Origin: Acidobacteriota bacterium
GTDB taxonomy: Bacteria; Acidobacteriota; Terriglobia; 20CM-2-55-15
NCBI GenBank assembly: GCA_022821145.1
Contig: JAJEEE010000025.1
Span: 18,050 to 82,049, forward strand
Direction of reading: 5' to 3'
Length of the DNA stretch: 64,000 bases
Part shown: positions 4,892 to 24,930 of the stretch, piece after piece
How positions within the stretch are numbered: position 1 is the stretch's first letter
Layout: the number at the start of each line of letters is the position of its first letter
Notes under the pieces: generated by a model
The model's input: only the letters and a program-made list of their open reading frames with translations
Databases searched by the model: none
Told to the model about the DNA's origin: nothing
Made by a program: the position numbers and the translations under genes

Positions 4892-5260
4892 TCAGTCCAC
4901 GCGCGCCGTATCGACGATGTACGCCGAGAGGGCGGCCAGGTCGGCGTCGCTGACCTCGGTCTTGCGGAAGGGCGCCATCACGCTCACGCCGTTCCGGACG
5001 AAAAAGGCGATCCGTTCCGGCGTCAGATCGCCGCGTTCGGTCAACACCGCTGGACGGCCATCATCGTACTTGGCCGCCAGAGCCTGTGTCCCCGGCATGT
5101 TGGGACCCGCCGAATGGCACGTCGCGCACCAGTAGTCGTAGACTTCCGCGCCGCGGGCCAACTCCGCGGCGTCCGGCTCATCCTGCGCGGGCGCCGACGT
5201 CCCAGCCAAGAACGCGGCGGTGACGACCGCCGCCGCAACGAAACCGCCCAGGAGCCTCAT
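4892..5260 (-). CDS. mono-heme cytochrome c (PchC-like flavocytochrome subunit)
   Basis: This is the 3' 369 nt of the 681-aa ORF. MRLLGGFVAAAVVTAAFLAGTSAPA is a signal peptide. It carries one CATCH (CXXCH) site. The ATG overlaps the stop of the upstream VAO gene (ATGA). Confidence 0.75.
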   Translation of the reverse strand: MRLLGGFVAAAVVTAAFLAGTSAPAQDEPDAAELARGAEVYDYWCATCHSAGPNMPGTQALAAKYDDGRPAVLTERGDLTPERIAFFVRNGVSVMAPFRKTEVSDADLAALSAYIVDTARVD

Positions 5261-6858
5261 GCGTCCCTCAGGTGGCGGGGCCATATGCCGTAGCGCCCGG
5301 CCGCGATGACGCCGTTCGGGTCCACGGCGTCCTTGATCGTCTCGTGTAGCCGGATCAGGGCGTTGTCGTTGAACGCGTACGCGGCCGCGCAATCGTCCAT
5401 GAACTCCGTGTGCGTGCGGTATTCGCCCCAGCCGTGCTCGGCGGCCACCTCGACGAGCCGCCGGAAGGTGCGGCGCACGGCCTGGTTCGTCTCGATGTCC
5501 GGCATCACGTAGAACATGCAGAGAATCACGAACGTGCGCGGATGGAAGGACTGCGGGAAGACCAGCAGCGCCGTGTCGGTCCCGAATTCCTGCAGAACCT
5601 GCTGGAACACGCGCTGCGACTCGATGACGGCCTCGCCGGTCATGGGGATGACGGGAGAAAAACCGACGTGTCCGCGCGTGGCGGGAGCGAAGTTCGATCG
5701 GGCGCCGATCGAGAAGGTCGCCAGCGTCGGTATGCCCAGGTCCTGCGGGTCGCGGACGCCGGCCTTCTCGGCCTCCGTCAGCGGGAAGCGGTAGAACGCG
5801 CCGTCCCGGAAGCGCGCGCCGGGGATCGACGACAGGCGGCGCCGGGTGTAATCCCACTGCGCGCGCACGACCTCCTCGGGTCCGTAGAACTTGAAGATGT
5901 TCGAGTAGAACGGCACGCCGCGCTCGCGCGCGAACGCGTCGAGACGGGCGATGTCGGCCGCCTCGCCGCTCGCCAGGGCCGCGCGCAGGTCGGGATCCTG
6001 GGCCACCGCGAAGCGCAGCGGCGATTGCAGGTTCGTGCCGGCGTTCTGCAAGCCGGTGTTCATCACGTAGTTCATGTGATCGACGAGCGGGATGACGTCG
6101 TCGTGACCGAACACCTCGACCGTGCCGTCGATATAGGCTTCCGGTTCCGGCATCAGCCAGACGCCCATCTTGGTGACGACGCCGAAGTTGGACTGCGAGA
6201 ACATCCCGTCGATGTACGGCCCGTATCCGTACTTGAAGTGCTGCCACGTCGTCGAGCCCGGCAGCGCGCCCATTCCCGTGCGCACCAGCTCGCCGGAGCC
6301 GGTCACGACCTCCATCCCGCAGTGGGCGTCGAAGTGGTCGCGGTACGGGTTCATCGTGTAGCCGACCCCGTGGTCCAGCGCGTTGCCGACGACGCTGCCC
6401 CAACCCGGGTCCGGGCAGTCGATCCACAGCTTGAGCCCGCGGTCCTGTATGTAGCGGTAGAGGTCGAAGTAGCTGACGCCGGGCTCGACCAGCGCGTAGG
6501 CGTTCCGCTCGTTCACTTCGAGAATCCGGTTCATGCGCTTCAGGTCGAGCACGACGCTGCCGGACAGCACCGGCGCGGCGCCGCCGTATCCGAGGTTCCG
6601 GCCCGTCGAGATCGGATAGAGCGGCACGCGAAACTCGTTGGCGACGCGCACGACGGCCTGGACCTGGTCGGCCGAGCCGGGCGCGACGGCCGCCGAGGCC
6701 ACTTTCTCGTCGGGCTCGTTCCACAGCGGCGAGTATGCGTCGCGGTACAAGGCGACATCCGCGTCGCCGGTGAAGACCCACTCCTCGCCCACGATGCCGC
6801 GCCAACGAGAGATCGCGTTGTCGAAATCCGTCTGACGGACTCCTCGGGGAAGCGTCAT
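5257..6858 (-). CDS. FAD-linked oxidase, vanillyl-alcohol oxidase / p-cresol methylhydroxylase flavoprotein family
   Basis: 534 aa from MTLPRGVRQTDFDNAISRWRGIVGEEWVF (GGAGG RBS). FAD_binding_4 and VAO C-terminal motifs (ISTGRNLGYGGAAP, RYGIWP). No signal peptide. Confidence 0.85.
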   Translation of the reverse strand: MTLPRGVRQTDFDNAISRWRGIVGEEWVFTGDADVALYRDAYSPLWNEPDEKVASAAVAPGSADQVQAVVRVANEFRVPLYPISTGRNLGYGGAAPVLSGSVVLDLKRMNRILEVNERNAYALVEPGVSYFDLYRYIQDRGLKLWIDCPDPGWGSVVGNALDHGVGYTMNPYRDHFDAHCGMEVVTGSGELVRTGMGALPGSTTWQHFKYGYGPYIDGMFSQSNFGVVTKMGVWLMPEPEAYIDGTVEVFGHDDVIPLVDHMNYVMNTGLQNAGTNLQSPLRFAVAQDPDLRAALASGEAADIARLDAFARERGVPFYSNIFKFYGPEEVVRAQWDYTRRRLSSIPGARFRDGAFYRFPLTEAEKAGVRDPQDLGIPTLATFSIGARSNFAPATRGHVGFSPVIPMTGEAVIESQRVFQQVLQEFGTDTALLVFPQSFHPRTFVILCMFYVMPDIETNQAVRRTFRRLVEVAAEHGWGEYRTHTEFMDDCAAAYAFNDNALIRLHETIKDAVDPNGVIAAGRYGIWPRHLRDA

Positions 6859-7409
6859 GTTCGGAAGCCTCCGATGCTCGCCCTCGCGCGGGCCGACGGA
6901 CGAGCGGGAGCGATGATCCAGGAATGCAGGACCGCATCGTCGTCGGACGCGGCCGGCATGGCTGCCTCGCTCGGCCCGCGCGGCGAGGTCTCTTCCAGTC
7001 GCGCCCGGGCCATGGCCTCGGCCACGCGCTCGGGCAACGCGCCGTCCGTCCACGGGGCCGCGTGCCTGCCGTGGTACACGACCCGCATTCCGTGGTCCCA
7101 CGCCAGGCGCTCCAGGCAGAACAACGCCCCTCGCGCGGTCAACCCCGCCAGGGGCGCCGGTTCGACCGTCCAGCGCGGGTGGAGCTCTTCGAACCAGAGC
7201 CGCGTGACGTCCCCGTCGATGGCGCGTGGCTCCAAGCCGAAGGGCCGAATCGCGTCGGCGAAACGGCGGGCCGGCTCGAACCTTCGGTCGAACACGGCCA
7301 TGCGGGGGCCGGGCGCGTCCATGGACGTCTCCGAGCGCGCGACAATCGGCGCAGCCGCGGCCAGCGCCGTGGCCCGGAGGAACTCACGCCGGTTCGTCAC
7401 TGGATTCAC
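6855..7409 (-). CDS. hypothetical protein with twin-arginine (Tat) signal
   Basis: Inferred GTG start gives VNPVTNRREFLRATALAAAAPIVA (S/T-RRxFL Tat motif). About 184 aa. Its stop overlaps the VAO start (ATGA) and its start overlaps the stop of the upstream small secreted gene (GTGA). Confidence 0.45.
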   Translation of the reverse strand: MNPVTNRREFLRATALAAAAPIVARSETSMDAPGPRMAVFDRRFEPARRFADAIRPFGLEPRAIDGDVTRLWFEELHPRWTVEPAPLAGLTARGALFCLERLAWDHGMRVVYHGRHAAPWTDGALPERVAEAMARARLEETSPRGPSEAAMPAASDDDAVLHSWIIAPARPSARARASIGGFRT

Positions 7410-7828
7410 CGCTCCTCGTCCTCGCCGGGCGCGCCCGTCCCGGGCGAGCCCAGGAACAATTGCGACCCGTCGGGCAGCGTGACGTTGCGCCCGTTCGCCG
7501 CGTTGGACCCGTCGCGGTGACGGTAGCCGAAAACGACGACCGCGGTGCCGTTCGGGATGGAATCCCGGGTCATGCCCCGGCGGACGAGCGTGTTGGGACT
7601 GCCCGCCTCGATCATCCAGCTTTCGACGGCGCCGTCCTGGCCTTCGACGTCGATGTGAAGCCACGCATGCGGATTGATCCACTCGATGCGCGTGATGGTG
7701 CCCTCGAGCGTGATCGGCTGGTTCTCGTCGAACTCCGCCGAGAACGCGTGGTGGGCCGCCGCGGGCGCCGCCGCGACCAGGACGGCGCCGGCAAGAACCG
7801 CCGCTTGCATCCATCGGGAGCTATTCAT
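7406..7828 (-). CDS. small secreted protein, family A (predicted mature N-terminus His-His)
   Basis: 140 aa from MNSSRWMQAAVLAGAVLVAAAPAAA|HHAFSAEFDENQPITLEGTITRIEWINPH. GGAGG RBS. It is a paralog of the 21858-22232 product. Confidence 0.55.
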   Translation of the reverse strand: MNSSRWMQAAVLAGAVLVAAAPAAAHHAFSAEFDENQPITLEGTITRIEWINPHAWLHIDVEGQDGAVESWMIEAGSPNTLVRRGMTRDSIPNGTAVVVFGYRHRDGSNAANGRNVTLPDGSQLFLGSPGTGAPGEDEER

Positions 7829-8786
7829 CTCCGGCCTCCGCTCGGCGTTCCTCCGCCCGCGCCGCCGAGAGCAAGCCGCGCAGTCCGTAGTTGCCCTCGT
7901 GACACGCGAATTCAATGAGCGGTCCCGCCTGGGGGTGCATGAAGATCTCCACGGTCCAGGGCTCGGTGAATACGTCGGGGTCGTCGATGGTGGCCCGGTA
8001 GCGGATCTGATCCGGCGCGGTGCGCGTGAATTCCTCCGTAACCCGGAAATTGTCGCTCATGACGGAATTCAGGTACTGGACGCCGTAGAAGTGCCTGTTG
8101 GGCCGTTGGTTCGCGGTTTCCACCACCAGCGTGTCGCCCTCCCAGCGGCCCCGCGAGTCGCCCGTCCACTGTCGTACGCGGTCGGGAAAGTGCGGGCGGC
8201 CGTCGATCGGAATGATCCGGACCTCGTGGTTGAGCTCGGCCATGATCGTCACGTAGTCGGGCGTCTGCACGATGTAGTAGTTGTTGTTGTAGGGCTCCGG
8301 GAACATCGGCGCGGCTCCGCCCCCGAACACGATGCATCGTTCGGTCAGGTACCGGTCCTCGGGCGAATCGGCCGGGTGCTCTGCCATGTAGGCCAGGTTC
8401 TCCTCGAACCGGCGCTGCGCCTCCGGCGTGAAGGGGGGAACGCGGCCGTCGGCGGGCTCGATCACCAGCGACGTACGCAGGGTGGGCACGATAGAGTTGC
8501 CGCGGTCGAACCAGGCGTCGTTGTACGAGCCGACCGATCCCGGCTGCCCGATGGTCCGGTCGGCGTTGGTGGCCTCGATTCTCTCCCGGACGTAGGCTTC
8601 GGCTTCCTCGGGCGTGAAGAACTCCGTGTCCGCAAGCTCGGACGGGCGCTGGAGCGGCGTCAGCGTCGCGTTCGACCACAGTCCCTGCAGATCCGGATCG
8701 CCCCACGACGTGCGCTGTGCGAGGCCTTCGGCCGGAACCGCGGACATCGCCAGCGCCGCCATGGCGAGAATGTGTCGATGGGTCAT
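7821..8786 (-). CDS. secreted protein, family B paralog (B2)
   Basis: 321 aa from MTHRHILAMAALAMSAVPAEGLA. It shares the motifs WEGDTLVVET and DDPDVFTEPWT with 8801-9583 and 22232-22996. I rejected the 5' extension of the 584-aa ORF. Confidence 0.6.
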   Translation of the reverse strand: MTHRHILAMAALAMSAVPAEGLAQRTSWGDPDLQGLWSNATLTPLQRPSELADTEFFTPEEAEAYVRERIEATNADRTIGQPGSVGSYNDAWFDRGNSIVPTLRTSLVIEPADGRVPPFTPEAQRRFEENLAYMAEHPADSPEDRYLTERCIVFGGGAAPMFPEPYNNNYYIVQTPDYVTIMAELNHEVRIIPIDGRPHFPDRVRQWTGDSRGRWEGDTLVVETANQRPNRHFYGVQYLNSVMSDNFRVTEEFTRTAPDQIRYRATIDDPDVFTEPWTVEIFMHPQAGPLIEFACHEGNYGLRGLLSAARAEERRAEAGDE

Positions 8787-8800
8787 CGTTCGGCTCCTCG

Positions 8801-9583
8801 TCACTCGTCCGGCCGCCGGATGAATTCGCCGTAGAGCAGTTCCTCGGTGAACTCCACGCACTTGAACTCCATCAAGTGCGCGTCGGGGTCGGGATTCCGG
8901 TACAGACGGAAACGCATCGTCCACGGCCGGGAGAACGTTTCGGGATCTTCGATCGTGGCCTCGTACTCCATGACGTCGGGTCCCGTCAGCGTGTACCGCT
9001 CGACGACGCGCGTCCCGGCGCCCGCGTGGTTGCCGGCGCGGTCCAGCCAGGCCAACCCGTTGAAGCCGGTCACCTCGACGACCAGCGTGTCGCCGTCCCA
9101 ACTCGCGTTCGACCAACCCATCCAACTGTCGAGGGGCGACGGGCGGTGGTCGCTCAGGTTGATGATGCGCGCGGCGCCCGCGAACTGGTACGTGAACTGC
9201 ATGTACCCTTCGGAGTGGAAGATCTGGAACGGATAGGGCATGTAGTTCGCTCGAGGGACACCGGGCATGAAGCACTTCGCCTCCGGATCCTCCGTCCAAC
9301 GGCTCTCGAAGTTGCGGTCCCTTTCGGCCGCCGCCTCGGGAAGATAGGGGATTTCGTCGCCGTCGACGATGCCGCGGCCCGGGGGCGCGGCCATGAGCGC
9401 GCCGTATTCGGGCGGCCCCGCGCCGGCGCCGTGCGTCAGGATATTCCAGTTCGCCGTGGTCAACGACTGCCAGACTCCGCTGAGATTCGGCGTGCCGTCC
9501 GACAGCCGCGGGATGTCCGTTCCGGCGCACCCTCCCGCCGCCACCGCCGCGGAGATCAGGCACGGAACGAACCATCGTCTCAT
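8801..9583 (-). CDS. secreted/lipoprotein, family B paralog (B1)
   Basis: 260 aa. AAGGAG RBS. The signal MRRWFVPCLISAAVAAGGC is lipobox-like. Motifs IPRLSDGTP, WDGDTLVVEV and EDPETFSRPWT. Confidence 0.65.
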   Translation of the reverse strand: MRRWFVPCLISAAVAAGGCAGTDIPRLSDGTPNLSGVWQSLTTANWNILTHGAGAGPPEYGALMAAPPGRGIVDGDEIPYLPEAAAERDRNFESRWTEDPEAKCFMPGVPRANYMPYPFQIFHSEGYMQFTYQFAGAARIINLSDHRPSPLDSWMGWSNASWDGDTLVVEVTGFNGLAWLDRAGNHAGAGTRVVERYTLTGPDVMEYEATIEDPETFSRPWTMRFRLYRNPDPDAHLMEFKCVEFTEELLYGEFIRRPDE

Positions 9584-9602
9584 CGCGGTCTCCTTGTCTT
9601 CG

Positions 9603-10862
9603 TCACTCGCCGGCGGGCTCGATGCGCAGGATCGACCCGTCGGGCGTGAGCCGGGCGCTTCCCGGACCGGATTGCAGGTCCCGCTCGACGGCGATGTAGA
9701 CGTTGCCGTCGGGTCCCTGGCGGACGTCCCGCACTCGAACGTCGAGGGGGATCAGCATGGAATCGCGGCGCTCGGGCTGCGGCGGCGGCTGATCGAAGGC
9801 CACGCGTTGCAACTGCTGCCCGCTCAACCCACCGATGAAGTAGTGCCCGCGCCACAACGGGAACCGGTCGCCGTCGTAGATCATCAGGCTGGACGGACTG
9901 ATCGCCGGAACCCAGAACATCACCGGCATCTCGATGCCGGGCCCCCACCAGGGCTGTTCGGAGGCGAGATTGCCGGTGTAGATCTTCCCCAGCGACACCA
10001 CCGGCCATCCGTAGTTCGCTCCGGGAACCAGCCGATTGAGCTCGTCGCCGGCCATCGGCCCGATTTCCGTGGCCCAGAGCTCGCCGGTCTCCGGATGCCA
10101 CGCCAGGCCCTGAGCGTTGCGATGACCGTAGGTGAAGATCTCGGGCAGCGCGTCGTCGCGCCCGGCGAACGGATTGCCGGGCGCCGCCCGGCCGTCGTCG
10201 CTCAACCGCAGCACCTTTCCGACGTGGTTGTCGAGCCCCTGAGCCAGCATGCGGTAGCTTGCGTCGTCGGTCAGATTGCCGGCGTCCCGGTCGCCGACGG
10301 TCAGGTACAACATCCCGTCGGGACCGAACTCGGCGCGCCCCGCCGTCGCGCCGCTGCCCCACGCCTCGGCCACGAACACGTCCTCGACTTCCGACAACGC
10401 CGCCCCGTCGAAACGCGCCCGCGCCAGTGCGACCGTGGTGCCCTCATCGCCCGCCTTGATGTAGGACAGGTAGACCCAACGGTTCTCTTCGAAATCCGGA
10501 TGAAGCGCGACCGAGTTCAGGCTTTCGGAGCGCAACGCGTCGTCGGGCCAGCCGGCGACCGGCGATGGATCGAGCCCATCGTCGCCCACGATGCGCAACC
10601 GGCCGGGGAACTCCGTCACGAGCATGTCGCCGTCCGGCAGGAAGGTCAGGTGCCACGGCCGCACCAGGCCATCGGCGACGGTCACCACGCGAATGCGCAC
10701 CAACTCGCCCGGCGGGCATCCGCCATGCAGTCCGCCGTTCGGAGAGCACGGACCGGGGGTGTACGTATCGAACACCCAGGTCGCGGCGTCGTCGGGAGCC
10801 TGGCGGCAGGACGCGGCGAGCAGCAGGACGCCCGCCAACATGGCCGTTCGGTGCGCGTGCAC
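9603..10862 (-). CDS. PQQ-dependent soluble sugar (aldose) dehydrogenase, YliI/SGDH family lipoprotein
   Basis: 419 aa. Lipobox LAASC. GSDH-family beta-propeller motifs YGHRNAQGLAWHPETGELWATE and GANYGWP. Confidence 0.8.
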   Translation of the reverse strand: MHAHRTAMLAGVLLLAASCRQAPDDAATWVFDTYTPGPCSPNGGLHGGCPPGELVRIRVVTVADGLVRPWHLTFLPDGDMLVTEFPGRLRIVGDDGLDPSPVAGWPDDALRSESLNSVALHPDFEENRWVYLSYIKAGDEGTTVALARARFDGAALSEVEDVFVAEAWGSGATAGRAEFGPDGMLYLTVGDRDAGNLTDDASYRMLAQGLDNHVGKVLRLSDDGRAAPGNPFAGRDDALPEIFTYGHRNAQGLAWHPETGELWATEIGPMAGDELNRLVPGANYGWPVVSLGKIYTGNLASEQPWWGPGIEMPVMFWVPAISPSSLMIYDGDRFPLWRGHYFIGGLSGQQLQRVAFDQPPPQPERRDSMLIPLDVRVRDVRQGPDGNVYIAVERDLQSGPGSARLTPDGSILRIEPAGE

Positions 10863-21159: not shown

Positions 21160-21786
21160 ATGGGCGCAAACGACGAACTGTACGGCTTCGTGAAGGAGGC
21201 GATGGCGCGCGGCGCGGCGCTGGAGCAGATTCGCGGCGCCCTCGTGGACGCGGGATGGGACGAGTCCCGTGTCCGGCAGGCCCTGGCGGCCTATGACGAG
21301 GGCGCGCTCGGAATTCCGGTGCCGCGGCCCCGGCCGTCCGAGGCGCGAGAGGCTCTCGTGTATCTGGTCCTGTTCGCCACCATATACTTGAGCGCGTTCA
21401 ACCTGGGCAACGTGGCTTTCCAACTCGTCAACCGCGGCTTTCCCGTGGCCGGCCAATCGGACGTCCAGGTCGACGACGCGATTCGGTTGTCGGCCTCCAT
21501 TCTCGTCGTCTCGCTGCCCGTGTTCCTGGTGCTGACGCGCGCGACCCGGCGCGCGGTCGAACGCGACCCGTCGCGCCGGGCATCGGCCATGCGCCGGTGG
21601 CTGACATCCCTGACGCTGGCCGTATCGTCGTTCGCGTGTCTGGGGGTCTTCAGCACGATCGTGTACAACTTCCTCGGCGACGCCCTGACGGCGCGTTTCG
21701 TCCTGAAGGCGCTTTCGGCCGGGATCATCGCCGCCGGCGTGTTCGCCTACTATCTGCGGGACATCCGCGAGGACGCCGCGCCCTGA
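21160..21786 (+). CDS. hypothetical membrane protein
   Basis: 208 aa. N-terminal soluble segment then about 4 hydrophobic helices. AAGGGG RBS. Confidence 0.45.
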   Translation: MGANDELYGFVKEAMARGAALEQIRGALVDAGWDESRVRQALAAYDEGALGIPVPRPRPSEAREALVYLVLFATIYLSAFNLGNVAFQLVNRGFPVAGQSDVQVDDAIRLSASILVVSLPVFLVLTRATRRAVERDPSRRASAMRRWLTSLTLAVSSFACLGVFSTIVYNFLGDALTARFVLKALSAGIIAAGVFAYYLRDIREDAAP

Positions 21787-21857
21787 GTCCCCGCGAATGC
21801 GAACTGCCGCCCGGACCGTTTCCCGGGGGTGTAGAATTGAGCGCCACGGGAGGCGTT

Positions 21858-22232
21858 ATGTCACGGCTATATTTCTTGGTCCCGATTGCCTTCGCGGTCG
21901 GGATGACCGCGGAGGCGGCGCATCACTCGATCGCCGCCGAATTCGACGCGGAGGATCCGATCACGCTCGTCGGCACGATTCGCGAAGTCGTCTGGATGAG
22001 CCCGCACATCAGCGTCTTCGTCGACGTGACGCAGGACGGCGGCGAGGTCCGGACGTACGAAGTGCAGGGCGGACCGCCGAATCGGCTCTACCGGAACGGC
22101 TCCCGGTCCACGGACCTGATGCCGGGCGACGCGGTCGTCGTCGAAGGCGCGCGCGCCCGGAACCCGGACAGCCTCCGCGTGGGCGAGGGCGAGTTCCACA
22201 AGCCCGACGGCACGCCGGTATGGGCGGACTGA
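21858..22232 (+). CDS. small secreted protein, family A paralog (A2)
   Basis: 124 aa. GGGAGG RBS. MSRLYFLVPIAFAVGMTAEAA|HHSIAAEFDAEDPITLVGTIREVVWMSPH aligns with 7406-7828. Its stop overlaps the next ATG (TGATG). Confidence 0.55.
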   Translation: MSRLYFLVPIAFAVGMTAEAAHHSIAAEFDAEDPITLVGTIREVVWMSPHISVFVDVTQDGGEVRTYEVQGGPPNRLYRNGSRSTDLMPGDAVVVEGARARNPDSLRVGEGEFHKPDGTPVWAD

Positions 22233-22996
22233 TGCGGCCGCGGATCGCCCGGGCGCTTTTCGCCGTCTTCTTCGTCTCTTCGCTCGCGTCCGCCCAGGAC
22301 GCCGGCGACGCCATTCCGCGCCTGCCCGACGGAAAGCCGAGCATGGCCGGGTTCTGGGGGCAGGTCCGCCGCGCCGACGTGACCGACTCCCGAATTCCGG
22401 GATATGTCGAAGAGCTGCCGTTCAGCGAATGGGGGCTCGAGCAATGGGAAAACTACGACCGGACCGATCCGGAACAGGGCGACTACGCGGGCAGTTGCAT
22501 GCCGTTCGGAATCTCCCGCACCGTTTTCGGCCCTCAACCGATCGCCATCGTGCAGGATGACGACCACCTGGTCTTCCTGGCCGAGCAGAACTCCTGGTTT
22601 CACATGGTTCCGACCGACGGCCGCGGTTACGATCCCGAGCTTCCGCCGTCGTGGTGGGGCGATTCGGTCGGACGCTGGGACGGCGACACCCTGATCGTCG
22701 AGACGCGCAACCTGAACGGCTACGCCAAGGTCGACACGATCGGACATCCCATCAGCAGCCTGGCGACCATCATCCAGACCTTCGAGCGCGTCGACGCCGA
22801 AACCATCGAGCACACGTACACGCTCGACGACCCGGGGGCCTACACCGAGCCCTGGACCGTGCGCAACACGTGGAGACACCACCCACCGGGTTTCCGGATG
22901 ATGGAATACTCCTGCATGGAGAACAACCTGACCGGGTTGACGGGAGGCACGCTCATTCCGTGGAAGCGGCCCACCGAGACCCGGCCCCCGGACTAA
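22232..22996 (+). CDS. secreted protein, family B paralog (B3)
   Basis: 254 aa. Signal MRPRIARALFAVFFVSSLASA. Motifs IPRLPDGKP, WDGDTLIVET and DDPGAYTEPWT. Confidence 0.65.
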   Translation: MRPRIARALFAVFFVSSLASAQDAGDAIPRLPDGKPSMAGFWGQVRRADVTDSRIPGYVEELPFSEWGLEQWENYDRTDPEQGDYAGSCMPFGISRTVFGPQPIAIVQDDDHLVFLAEQNSWFHMVPTDGRGYDPELPPSWWGDSVGRWDGDTLIVETRNLNGYAKVDTIGHPISSLATIIQTFERVDAETIEHTYTLDDPGAYTEPWTVRNTWRHHPPGFRMMEYSCMENNLTGLTGGTLIPWKRPTETRPPD

Positions 22997-23025
22997 CCGC
23001 ACGCCGCCGCGCCGCAGGAGGCCCC

Positions 23026-24522
23026 ATGCGTATTTTCACGCCGCTCGTCATCGTCGCGATCGCACTGCCCGCCGCCGGCGCCGCGCCGTTGCAGATCACG
23101 GAAAATCCCCTGCCGGAACCCGTGGAGATGCACGGCCTGCGCGCCGAAGTTCGCCAACTCGCGCGGCTGCCCGAAACCCAGGGACGTCTGCCCGAGGACC
23201 GGGACGCGGCCGGTTTCGCGCGCGTCAGCTTCGTCCGCGACGCCCCGGACGGCCGGCGCTTCGTCAACGACTCGCGCGGATACCTGTACATCCTGGACGC
23301 GGACGACCGGTTGACGCTCTACCTGGACTTCGCCGAAGCCTTGCCGTTCACGGCCTACAACCGGCTCGAGAGCGGGTTCATCGGCTTCGATTTCCACCCG
23401 GAATTCGCCGCGACCGGACTGTTCTATACGGTCCACGGCGAGTACGCGCCCGACAACCCCGCCCGGCCCGACTTCATTCCGCCCGGGTTCACCCTCGACG
23501 ACGCCACCTACTACAACGTCATCACCGAGTGGCGCGCCTCATCGCCCGCGGCCGACGCCTTCGATGGAACCCGCCGCGAACTCCTCCGAGTCGCCCACGT
23601 CGTCGACAGCCTGACCCATCCCTTCGGCTACGTCGGTTTCAATCCGACCGCGACGCCGGGCGACGCCGATTACGGGTTGCTCTACACCAGCGGCAGCGAC
23701 ATCGGTTTCAGCAACGGGGCCGGTCCGAATGCCCCAAGGGCTGGACAGTTGCAGCGGCTGGACTCCGTGGTCGGAGCGATACTTCGCATCGATCCGCGCA
23801 GCCCGTCCGAGTCGGGAGGCCAGAAGGGACTCGGGGATTACACGATCCCTCCCGACAACCGTTTCGCGTCGGACGGCGACGCCGAGACGCTGGGCGAGAT
23901 CTACGCACACGGTTTCCGCAATGCGCACCGGCTGTCATGGGACGCCGAGGACGGAACGCTGTTCGCCACCGACATCGGGATGAACCACATCGAGGAGGTC
24001 AACATCGTCCGCAACGGCGAGAACTACGGCTGGATGCAGCGCGAGGGGTTCTTCGACAACGGCATCAACTTCCCGGGCGGCGAGCTCGACCAGCTGTATC
24101 TCCTGCCCCCGGATGTGCTGACGGGCGAGACCGAGGACGGGTTCACGTATCCGGTGGCGATCTACGATCACGACGAAGGCCGCGCCATATCGGGCGGGTT
24201 CGCCTACCGCGGCGCGATCGAAGCCCTGCGCGGCAAGTTCGTTTTCGGCGACATCCGCCTGGGACGGATCTTCGCGGCCGACCTGGAAGCGATGAAGGCG
24301 GCCGACGACGGCGTCCCCACGACGGTCGCGCCCGTCGAGGAAGTCCAACTCTTCGTGCGGGACTCGGACGGCCGGGAACGGGACGTCACGTTCATGGAGC
24401 TGGTGGAGGAAACCAACGGCGCCCCCGTCGAGCGGACCGACCTGCACATCAGCCAGAGCGGAGACGGCGAGCTGTTCCTGACGTCGAGACAGGACGGCAC
24501 GGTCCGCATGCTCGTCCCGTAG
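23026..24522 (+). CDS. PQQ-dependent sugar dehydrogenase-like beta-propeller (SGDH family)
   Basis: 498 aa. AGGAGG RBS. Signal peptide. Motifs HGFRNAHRLSWDAEDGTLFATDIG and GENYGWMQ. Confidence 0.75.
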   Translation: MRIFTPLVIVAIALPAAGAAPLQITENPLPEPVEMHGLRAEVRQLARLPETQGRLPEDRDAAGFARVSFVRDAPDGRRFVNDSRGYLYILDADDRLTLYLDFAEALPFTAYNRLESGFIGFDFHPEFAATGLFYTVHGEYAPDNPARPDFIPPGFTLDDATYYNVITEWRASSPAADAFDGTRRELLRVAHVVDSLTHPFGYVGFNPTATPGDADYGLLYTSGSDIGFSNGAGPNAPRAGQLQRLDSVVGAILRIDPRSPSESGGQKGLGDYTIPPDNRFASDGDAETLGEIYAHGFRNAHRLSWDAEDGTLFATDIGMNHIEEVNIVRNGENYGWMQREGFFDNGINFPGGELDQLYLLPPDVLTGETEDGFTYPVAIYDHDEGRAISGGFAYRGAIEALRGKFVFGDIRLGRIFAADLEAMKAADDGVPTTVAPVEEVQLFVRDSDGRERDVTFMELVEETNGAPVERTDLHISQSGDGELFLTSRQDGTVRMLVP

Positions 24523-24558: not shown

Positions 24559-24729
24559 CTATGGTTTCAACAGGGTGTCCACGTCACGTCCGCCATACAG
24601 GATTCTGAGGAACGTTACCGTATCCGGTCCGACGTGGAAGGCGACGGTCACCCTCCGCTCGAACCCGACGAGGCGGAAGCCAGGAAATAGATCGTTACGG
24701 GCTTCCGGCGCGAAGACGACTTCAGGCAT
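24559..24729 (-). pseudogene. ParE/RelE-family toxin remnant (internally deleted)
   Basis: 56 aa from MPEVVFAPEARNDLF, then ...RRVTVAFHVGPDTVTFLRILYGGRDVDTLL. N- and C-terminal ParE motifs are present but about 35 central residues are absent. No partner antitoxin was found. Confidence 0.3.
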
Positions 24730-24930
24730 CGCTTCCGAGATCTTCCAGCCGCCGGTTGTGAATGTCTCGCAGGACATGAACGACCCGTGGCGTTTCCAGT
24801 CGGGTTCGGTCCGGCAACCCGAACTCGAAGATCGTACCCGGGTACGCCGCCCAATGCCGCCCTTATGCCAAGGCACGGATGTGCCGAGTCCGCAAAATCC
24901 GAAACAGAACCCGCGGTCATGCGGCTCCCG

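Follow-up and report, generated by a model that had tools for sequence, protein, structure and literature searches.

Gene content and layout of the locus

The locus, called here locus 2, lies on the plus strand of a 64,000-nucleotide stretch of an Acidobacteriota contig; this whole stretch is the window of the present analysis. It contains one gene of family A (DUF6152), one gene of family B and one GSDH-like gene, preceded by a gene for a membrane protein:

21160..21786, plus strand: membrane protein with a DUF5671 domain, 208 aa (Pfam PF18920, 86.8 bits), 71 nt before A2
21848..21853, plus strand: Shine-Dalgarno-like site GGGAGG, 4 nt ahead of the A2 ATG, read from the sequence
21858..22232, plus strand: A2, DUF6152 protein, 124 aa, ATG at 21858, stop TGA at 22230-22232
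22230..22234, plus strand: TGATG, in which the last base of the A2 stop codon, 22232, is also the first base of the B3 start codon
22232..22996, plus strand: B3, 254 aa, ATG at 22232-22234, stop TAA at 22994-22996
23016..23021, plus strand: Shine-Dalgarno site AGGAGG, 4 nt ahead of the SGDH2 ATG, read from the sequence
23026..24522, plus strand: SGDH2, GSDH-like protein, 498 aa, ATG at 23026

Independent public gene calls for the source scaffold contain the same four genes (the DUF5671 gene, A2, B3 and SGDH2). The coordinates, the TGATG overlap of A2 and B3 and the ribosome-binding sites given in the first-pass annotation are all borne out; the B3-SGDH2 spacer, which carries the AGGAGG, is 29 nt. 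There is an alternative in-frame B3 start codon at 22220, and a gene starting there would overlap A2 as well. Stop/start overlaps of 1 or 4 bases and Shine-Dalgarno-like hexamers are everyday features of operons and not rare. A terminator scan found no plus-strand terminator-like site between A2, B3 and SGDH2, and a promoter scan gave a single match, at chance level, inside the DUF5671 gene, so that the search for independent promoters or terminators suggested at the outset turned up neither between the genes. The spacers of locus 2 fold no better than shuffled sequences, and an Rfam search of them for riboswitches and small RNAs gave no meaningful match. The earlier description of a compact operon agrees with these results: a co-directional cluster whose genes overlap by 1 nt or lie 29 nt apart, with unstructured spacers and no terminator, fits one transcript, and A2, B3 and SGDH2 are probably co-transcribed. 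Predicted Sec signal peptides suggest that all three products are exported.

The DUF5671 gene was thought to be a possible member of the same operon. This is not borne out: among some 160 other loci a DUF5671 gene accompanies A/B only in L011, and the orthologous A-B pairs of loci L170, L172 and L001 have none beside them. On the basis of synteny the gene was rejected as part of the unit.

Members of the same three families occur once more in the window, on the minus strand (locus 1, 7406-10862):

7406..7828, minus strand: A1, DUF6152 paralogue, 140 aa, Pfam 116.8 bits
7821..8786, minus strand: B1, B paralogue, 321 aa
8801..9583, minus strand: B2, B paralogue, 260 aa, lipobox-like AAGGC
9603..10862, minus strand: SGDH1, canonical-looking GSDH paralogue, Pfam GSDH 340 bits

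Locus 2 had been taken for a second copy of this module, which is correct insofar as the families are the same. The paralogues, however, are distant: A1 and A2 are 38% identical, B1 and B2 share 33% and 27% identity with B3 (tblastn), and SGDH1 and SGDH2 share 39% over 94 aa. The gene order is also different, SGDH1-B2-B1-A1 at locus 1 versus A2-B3-SGDH2 at locus 2, and together with identities of 27-39% this rules out a recent duplication of locus 1.

DUF6152 and the B family

A2 matches Pfam DUF6152 (PF19649) with 76.7 bits (cut-off 27), and our literature search found no paper that mentions this family. In an alignment of 37 homologues, residues A21, H22, H23, A27, E28, F29, D30, W46, P49, H50, P74, N75 and R79 are invariant, and there is no conserved Met or Cys. 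The predicted mature N-terminus of A2, behind its predicted Sec signal peptide, is His22-His23. Since Ala directly precedes the His pair in 37 of 37 aligned sequences and, in those sequences that were inspected by eye, position -3 is occupied by a small or aliphatic residue, signal peptidase I should expose His as residue 1. A search of metagenomes with the pattern AHHS[IF]AAE brought up over 578 relatives encoded there. In PDB no relative of family A was found by sequence or profile searches; the AF2 model of A2 is an OB-fold (pLDDT 86.6), with weak Foldseek matches to SSB and PriB.

B3, which is predicted to be exported, has no match in Pfam, NCBIfam or PDB by sequence or profile searches. 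Its AF2 model is a calycin-like antiparallel β-barrel (pLDDT 85, pTM 0.82), and the best Foldseek matches are to FABP, CRABP and SAHS proteins (E about 2e-3, query TM 0.32, target TM 0.55). In the alignment of the family there are two invariant cysteines (C89 and C228), invariant acidic residues D129, E225 and E230, and a GxW motif that falls on the first strand of the barrel model; H172 and H194 are kept in the B3 subfamily and are absent from B1 and B2. The family is large, with 17,978 representatives of 50% identity clusters at E<=1e-3, and Acidobacteriota and other soil bacteria carry several copies of it. Among 20 unusually long B representatives scanned for fusions, one joins a cytochrome c domain to B (P0378) and three join B to DUF3471; none of the 20 contains a DUF6152 domain.

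SGDH2 and its putative PQQ site

SGDH2 matches Pfam PF07995 (GSDH) over residues 73-423 with 73.7 bits (cut-off 25). Against NCBIfam TIGR03606 it scores 30.7 bits, far from the cut-off of 434, which places it outside that subfamily. Plain sequence searches connect it to PDB relatives only over some 60 residues, with E of 1e-9 to 1e-4; profile comparison (hhalign) of the SGDH2 family with YliI, 7CDY, 2ISM, 3A9G and SGDH1 gives 99% probability over 313 aligned columns. Orthologues of at least 68% identity are very numerous, and about 70% identity is retained across hundreds of clusters. Judged by these searches, SGDH2 belongs to an uncharacterised GSDH subfamily that is divergent and at the same time highly conserved.

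Gln231 and Gln246 are among the residues of sGDH reported to contact PQQ (Oubrie et al. 1999). SGDH2 residues E115, H198, R298 and N299 align with Q76, H144, R228 and N229 of sGDH. In particular, the catalytic histidine, the general base, is kept: H198, in the sequence THPFG, is the counterpart of the His in HxGG[RK] and is invariant in 29 orthologues, as is the R298-N299 dyad, and E115 is nearly invariant; in SGDH1 the catalytic position is occupied by Ala. The positions of Q231 and Q246 are taken in SGDH2 by H301 and I317, the second of these positions being His in the EHGP of Asd-type enzymes, and DIGM replaces E[HQ]GP. At the C-terminus hhalign places R450-E-R452-D-V on RIRDV with low confidence, a 21-residue insertion follows, and SGDH2 orthologues have only one nearly invariant Arg in the region of the Arg pair. 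The first-pass annotation had raised the loss of PQQ-binding residues from the 23026-24522 product as a point to be checked; among the residues that can be aligned, H198 and R298-N299 are retained. Conservation of the catalytic His and of the Arg-Asn dyad indicates that SGDH2 is most likely still a PQQ-type dehydrogenase, and binding of PQQ is plausible.

A-B pairs across genomes, and their association with SGDH2

A set of 80 B-centred genome loci contains 37 A genes, 31 of which touch a B gene; 19 of these 31 pairs have the order A then B on the same strand, and their gaps are concentrated between -4 and +8 nt, the stop and start codons often overlapping. Likewise, in 80 A-centred metagenome loci 53 A genes could be assessed, and 33 of them have B as an immediate neighbour. 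B copies exceed A copies in the B-centred loci (121 vs 37) and form tandem arrays there. The stop/start overlap seen at locus 2 is not kept in the orthologous loci L170, L172 and L001, in which public gene calls leave 41-147 nt between A and B. The proposal that A and B travel together is thus upheld by both samples, and the A-B pair is an evolutionarily conserved core unit, a gene pair that recurs in many soil bacteria. For DUF6152, the pairing with the B family, the predicted OB-fold and the invariant His-His at the predicted mature N-terminus are observations of this study.

No third partner of the pair emerges from 136 operon partners compared with 136 control genes, where no Pfam family is significantly enriched. 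Most A-B pairs adjoin hydrolases, transporters or nothing relevant, and, with no enriched partner family, the pair can only loosely be described as accessory to enzymes. GSDH genes make up 4 of 1173 genes around B and 0 of 456 genes around A in the B-centred and A-centred loci, respectively, and the partners are heterogeneous, so that the earlier view of A, B and SGDH as a three-part module does not hold in general.

The association is frequent only when viewed from the side of SGDH2, where A/B are present in four of nine contexts of SGDH2 orthologues (the window, L036, L172 and L088) and missing from five (L086, L087, L089, L173 and L174). The order in L172 is A-B-PD40-SGDH2, and in L088 the SGDH2 orthologue is accompanied by a divergent A-B-NHL set. 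With the window set aside, A/B occur in three of eight contexts. We estimated from the B-centred counts a rough background of about 3-13% per gene, for any gene to lie within two genes of a B copy; against this rough figure the binomial p for three of eight is about 0.001-0.07. Viewed from B3, the neighbour is variable: the orthologue of 84% identity lies in A-B-SGL, and close B3 orthologues are followed by IS elements in L001, by SGL in L170 and by nothing in L171. The third gene after A-B nevertheless repeatedly encodes a β-propeller (GSDH, SGL, NHL or PD40); one locus, L011, has the order GSDH-B-A-B-B, and both A-B loci of the source genome abut GSDH genes, of different subfamilies.

Possible functions of the A-B pair

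We favour, tentatively and with a probability of roughly 0.4, the explanation that the conserved A-B pair is a generic periplasmic accessory, and that SGDH2, a likely PQQ-type enzyme, is the enzyme that it serves at this locus. The frequent translational coupling of A and B suggests that the two proteins would be produced at constant stoichiometry and cooperate in the periplasm. The diversified, multi-copy, disulfide-type barrel of B could hold a small ligand, and the constant partner A would contribute its invariant mature N-terminal stretch, His-His-Ser-(Ile/Phe)-Ala-Ala-Glu-Phe-Asp, as a metal-binding, ligand-binding or docking element. Different genomes would then have placed the pair beside many kinds of periplasmic enzymes, SGDH2 being the one found here and in about four of nine orthologue contexts. 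Formation of an A-B complex, binding of a ligand or metal, dependence of SGDH2 on PQQ and a hand-over between A-B and SGDH2 are all inferred parts of this scheme.

The adjacency of SGDH2 to A2-B3 may also be incidental packing of the genome, with unrelated functions and only a promoter or a neighbourhood in common. The heterogeneity of A/B neighbourhoods, with no family significantly enriched, the five orthologue contexts that lack A/B and the changing genes behind close B3 orthologues all agree with this possibility, which we regard as somewhat unlikely, given that a GSDH gene abuts both A-B loci of the source genome, that three of eight contexts outside the window have A/B (by our own rough binomial estimate) and that propellers recur in third place. 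In another explanation, A, B and the GSDH-like propeller would form an obligate module, in which A/B take the place of a cytochrome and receive the electrons that the reduced SGDH2 cofactor gives up. Within about 10 kb of locus 2 no gene is recorded as belonging to a cytochrome Pfam family, as the first-pass annotation had noted for the adjacent genes, and PQQ-dependent six-bladed enzymes are reported to adjoin cytochrome c4/c551 genes (bioRxiv 10.64898/2026.07.10.737718). The three families meet twice in the source genome, with different subfamilies and order; the four of nine contexts, the L011 arrangement and the natural fusion of a monohaem cytochrome c with a B domain in P0378 point the same way. 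Against an obligate module stand the scarcity of GSDH genes around A/B and the prevalence of hydrolases, transporters or irrelevant genes beside A-B pairs. Furthermore, haem (CxxCH), type-1 copper and flavin motifs are absent from A and B, CxxCH genes near A/B are not enriched (22/541 vs 26/788, p=0.46), and none of the 300 A/B genes in the loci retrieved is a cytochrome c-B fusion. The suggestion that A/B themselves serve as the electron acceptor therefore has little support, the P0378 fusion being the one hint, and we judge the obligate module to be very unlikely.

A different line of reasoning starts from A itself, as a protein of histidine-brace type that binds copper or another metal; A-B would then be a new metalloprotein of the periplasm, working as an oxidative enzyme or as a metallochaperone and independently of SGDH2, with B binding the substrate. 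The copper sites of LPMO, CopC, PmoB and YcnI are typified by an invariant His at the N-terminus of an exported protein, and CusF is a periplasmic metallochaperone with an OB-fold. The invariant His at predicted mature position 1 of A, a second invariant His, E28, D30 and H50 are consistent with a metal site, as are D129, E225 and E230 of B, with H172/H194 in the B3 subfamily. However, H22/H23 together with H50, E28 and D30 may not form one site, A has neither conserved Met nor conserved Cys, H172 and H194 are missing from B1 and B2, and there is no profile similarity to CusF or to any solved protein. A CusF-type metallochaperone was itself rejected as a candidate (hhalign probability 5.7%, no conserved Met in A). 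We consider the metalloprotein explanation unlikely. A bolder extension, to which we attach a very low probability indeed, would make DUF6152/B an unrecognised, widespread periplasmic two-protein metallo-system, built of a histidine-brace-like OB-fold and a calycin-type barrel and acting as an oxidase or electron sink, or in the hand-over of cofactor or substrate, for cofactor-dependent β-propellers such as SGDH2-type PQQ dehydrogenases.

To our knowledge, little has been established about which partners and electron acceptors soluble six-bladed PQQ dehydrogenases use physiologically, and an A-B pair beside one of the most conserved of their uncharacterised subfamilies provides a concrete candidate for such a partner. 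B is among the larger exported bacterial families that have no Pfam or NCBIfam model and no solved relative, and in every case known to us an invariant His at the mature N-terminus marks a metal site. Once defined, a function of A-B would provide an annotation for thousands of genes from soil and marine metagenomes.

Comparison with known systems

In Pfam, A2 (76.7 bits) and A1 (116.8 bits) are clear members of DUF6152, a family without described function. Like the histidine-brace proteins (CopC, YcnI, LPMOs, PmoB), A2 has His as its predicted residue 1, and metal binding by A2 may be suggested by this analogy, but there is no detectable homology, and none of the histidine-brace folds known to us is an OB-fold. 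CusF is likewise small and exported and shares with A2 the OB-fold, predicted in the latter, but the His/Met/Met/Trp Cu(I) site of CusF is not found in A. The lanthanide 'cargo' protein lacks a conserved domain and uses Asp/Glu for binding (bioRxiv 10.64898/2026.07.10.737718), and is therefore not DUF6152.

The B3 model resembles the calycins (FABP/CRABP, lipocalins, avidins) in its antiparallel β-barrel with GxW on the first strand. B proteins, however, have about double the length, carry an additional helical region at the N-terminus and differ by two invariant cysteines; sequence similarity to calycins is absent, the structural matches are weak, and B is at most a candidate member of the calycin superfamily.

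SGDH2 shares membership in Pfam PF07995 and predicted export with sGDH (PDB 1C9U) and Asd/YliI (PDB 2G8S), and, like Asd-type enzymes, has Glu at the position of sGDH Q76. With several insertions it exceeds Asd in length by about 150 residues, and its counterpart of the Ca loop has Gly-Met in place of the Gly-Pro of sGDH and Asd. At the level of the whole locus, the closest parallel is with the quinoprotein clusters MxaFJGI and XoxFGJ, in which an exported PQQ-type propeller is likewise encoded beside small exported proteins in one predicted operon; the partners at locus 2, however, are neither cytochromes nor SBP-like proteins of the MxaJ/XoxJ type, and the A-B pair mostly occurs apart from any quinoprotein.

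Organization of locus 2 and its relation to locus 1

Re-reading of the sequence bore out the gene coordinates first annotated for locus 2, and the public gene calls for its source, a 275-kb metagenome scaffold, list identical genes.

Features of locus 2 and its flanks
21160-21786, + strand: DUF5671 membrane protein, 208 aa, ending 71 nt upstream of A2
21848-21853, + strand: GGGAGG, SD-like hexamer before A2
21858 (ATG) to 22230-22232 (TGA), + strand: A2, DUF6152 protein, 124 aa
22232 (ATG) to 22996, + strand: B3, large exported family with predicted barrel fold, 254 aa
23016-23021, + strand: AGGAGG, SD-like hexamer before SGDH2
23026-24522, + strand: SGDH2, glucose/sorbosone dehydrogenase (GSDH) family, 498 aa, after a 29-nt spacer
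24559-24777, - strand: 72-aa gene directly downstream of SGDH2, convergent, without a Pfam match

The stop codon of A2 and the start codon of B3 form TGATG with one base in common, because the B3 ATG starts at 22232. An alternative in-frame ATG at 22220 (+) (MGGLMRPR...) would make the overlap 13 nt rather than 1; homologue N-termini and the public gene calls favour 22232. The + strand carries no terminator-like site between the genes, and the lone promoter-like match is of the kind expected by chance. In folding, the spacers do not surpass their shuffled versions, and an Rfam search of them gave no meaningful match. The stop/start overlap and the SD-like hexamers favour co-transcription, but such features are common in operons and not remarkable in themselves. 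The proposal of a compact operon thus stands as far as co-directional, tightly packed genes without internal signals are concerned, while the wider interpretation attached to it by the first-pass annotation is supported only in part. Judged by eye, each of the three proteins starts with a signal peptide, so that all are probably periplasmic. As had been noticed, there is no adjacent cytochrome: none is listed within about 10 kb in the public gene calls.

Locus 2 had been described as a second copy of the module at locus 1. It is not a duplicate, because its genes share only 27-39% identity with their locus-1 paralogues and stand in a different order. Locus 1 is a seven-gene run on one strand, 4892-10862 (-), with overlapping stops and starts.

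Features of locus 1
9603-10862, - strand: SGDH1, GSDH family
8801-9583, - strand: B2
7821-8786, - strand: B1
7406-7828, - strand: A1, DUF6152 protein
6855-7409, - strand: TAT-signal protein, 184 aa, after A1
5257-7101, - strand: FAD_binding_4/VAO-type FAD oxidase
4892-5260, - strand: monohaem cytochrome c

The last three products resemble the three subunits of a periplasmic flavocytochrome dehydrogenase. In B2 the signal peptide is closed by a lipobox-like AAGGC, so that B2, unlike B3, may be a lipoprotein. SGDH1 has Ala where YliI, 2ISM, 3A9G and 7CDY carry the catalytic His (GSGATAGRAEF versus GNHFGGRLVF), as well as Ile in its E[HQ]GP motif, and may not be a conventional dehydrogenase.

SGDH2 is a divergent member of the GSDH family

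SGDH2 matches the Pfam GSDH model at 73.7 bits, versus 340 bits for SGDH1. It has diverged from the characterised enzymes: its PDB matches span about 60 residues, with E-values no better than 1e-9. Profile-profile alignment with YliI-type enzymes nevertheless covers 313 columns at 99% probability. The orthologue group is tightly conserved (the matches listed include over 100 clusters with 68-90% identity), and several clusters, from Vicinamibacterales or Acidobacteria, are named PQQ-dependent sugar dehydrogenase.

Loss of PQQ-binding residues in SGDH2 had been suggested as evidence against a second copy of the module. The catalytic core is kept: relative to soluble PQQ glucose dehydrogenase (sGDH), E115 aligns with Gln76, H198 with the catalytic His144 and R298-N299 with R228-N229, the last two sites being invariant in 29 orthologues. 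Elsewhere, His301 and Ile317 replace Gln231 and Gln246. The last blades are less clear: the C-terminal Arg pair, beside a 21-residue insertion, is aligned with low confidence only. SGDH2 scores 30.7 bits against the sGDH subfamily model TIGR03606 (cut-off 434), and belongs to a divergent, uncharacterised subfamily of GSDH, not to that of sGDH.

The A and B families

A2 belongs to Pfam DUF6152 (76.7 bits), a family without assigned function; our literature search found no paper that mentions it. An alignment of 37 homologues shows the invariant block A21-H22-H23-S-(I/F)-A-A-E28-F29-D30, as well as invariant W46, P49-H50, P74-N75 and R79. At -3, those sequences that were read by eye have a small or aliphatic residue; the invariant Ala just before two His fits signal peptidase I cleavage, and mature A2 should then begin with His-His. 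The AF2 model of A2 is an OB-fold (pLDDT 86.6), with weak, generic PDB matches to SSB and PriB. A profile search against solved proteins gave no match, CusF included.

B3 has no sequence relative in Pfam, NCBIfam or PDB, and yet its family, clustered at 50% identity, comprises 17,978 representatives at E<=1e-3 and 9,317 at E<=1e-10. Among the residues that are invariant both in relatives of B3 and in its distant paralogues, B1 and B2, are G40-x-W42, C89, D129, W141, E225, C228 and E230. The AF2 model is a confident β-barrel (pLDDT 85, pTM 0.82); its best solved matches are FABP/CRABP/SAHS calycins, at E of about 2e-3, with a query TM-score of 0.32 and target TM-scores of 0.53-0.58, a weak likeness, and in predicted fold only. 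The family is diversified and occurs in multiple copies. Many proteins of about 500 aa contain two B domains; P0404, P0410 and P0456 combine B with a C-terminal DUF3471.

Genomic neighborhoods

We examined 80 B-centred loci from species-representative genomes, mostly of Acidobacteriota, with some Gammaproteobacteria and Gemmatimonadota. The 1173 genes called there comprise 121 B and 37 A genes. Of the A genes, 31 directly adjoin a B gene; in 19 of these cases A precedes B in the same orientation, and the gaps cluster between -4 and +8 nt. A B gene also lies next to 33 of the 53 assessable A genes in 80 metagenome loci centred on A. A and B are thus a conserved pair, often translationally coupled. 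The module does not generally extend to the dehydrogenase, GSDH genes being rare on the A/B side (4/1173 genes in B-centred and 0/456 in A-centred loci). Nor does the DUF5671 membrane protein appear to be part of the unit: apart from the window, only L011 has it near A/B, and the orthologous loci L170, L172 and L001 lack it. L011:7139-15880 (+), from an Acidobacteriota MAG whose assembly has evident frameshifts, encodes GSDH, B, A, B, B, PrpD/DUF5671 and MFS on one strand.

A set of 136 same-strand operon partners of A/B proved heterogeneous in a Pfam survey: Lactamase_B (7), MFS (5), OMP and TonB barrels (4+3), Glyoxalase (4), DUF6644 (4), eight-bladed PQQ (3), cytochrome c (3) and NHL (3). 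None of these families is by itself significantly enriched over 136 distant genes that were taken from these loci as a matched control. DUF6644, which has no assigned function, numbers at most 1/136 in the control (it is absent from the control families listed), and also occurs near an SGDH2 orthologue (L089:3399-3917).

Seen from the side of SGDH2, A/B are present in 4 of 9 contexts: the window, L036, where the SGDH2-like gene adjoins B genes, L172, with A-B-PD40 propeller-SGDH2 on one strand, and L088, where the SGDH2-type gene is divergent from A-B-NHL/lactonase-like propeller. The other five (L086, L087, L089, L173, L174) are without A/B. By our rough estimate, which is not a tool statistic, any gene lies within two genes of a B copy at a background of 3-13%; 3/8 contexts with the window excluded (p of about 0.001-0.07) are therefore suggestive of an association above background, but not decisive. 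An 84%-identical B3 orthologue lies in the order A-B-SGL propeller (L170:4526-6943, +), and in L173:1825-6521 (+) a quinohaemoprotein PQQ dehydrogenase and an SGL (gluconolactonase-like) propeller precede the SGDH2 orthologue; lactone-forming and lactone-hydrolysing propellers are found repeatedly around SGDH2 and A-B genes.

Possible function of the A-B pair

We propose, with a probability of about 0.4, that A and B act together in the periplasm, probably as a complex, in which the variable B barrel would bind a small ligand and the constant A would supply a segment for metal binding, ligand binding or docking. The pair would be a generic accessory combined with different periplasmic enzymes, here with the PQQ-type dehydrogenase SGDH2. 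That SGDH2 stands beside A-B by pure coincidence is a somewhat less probable reading.

The first-pass annotation also considered that A/B themselves may serve as the electron acceptor of SGDH2. The idea draws mainly on one natural fusion, metagenome protein P0378 from outside the window, in which a monohaem cytochrome c (CQACH, Pfam Cytochrome_CBB3) is followed by a B2-like domain, and on co-occurrence of A, B and GSDH in the window genome. Against it, redox motifs are absent from both A and B, and the neighbourhoods of A/B show no enrichment of CxxCH genes (22/541 versus 26/788, p=0.46). A further, less probable reading, in which A would be a histidine-brace copper protein, is attractive, because an invariant mature N-terminal His, as predicted for A, marks a metal site in known exported examples (LPMO, CopC, YcnI, PmoB).

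The main interest is in the A-B pair itself rather than in a second copy: the two exported proteins are very widespread together, B lacks any family model, and A has a putative metal-site-like N-terminal signature. Locus 2 would be a cluster in which novel accessory proteins accompany an exported dehydrogenase of PQQ type, and its arrangement is like that of quinoprotein operons with small periplasmic partners. Six-bladed PQQ enzymes have been described with adjacent cytochromes c4/c551 and a small Ln-binding protein (bioRxiv 10.64898/2026.07.10.737718). Compared with those clusters, the partners at locus 2 are of other, undescribed kinds; the Ln-binding protein is different from them, and A-B mostly occur without any quinoprotein.
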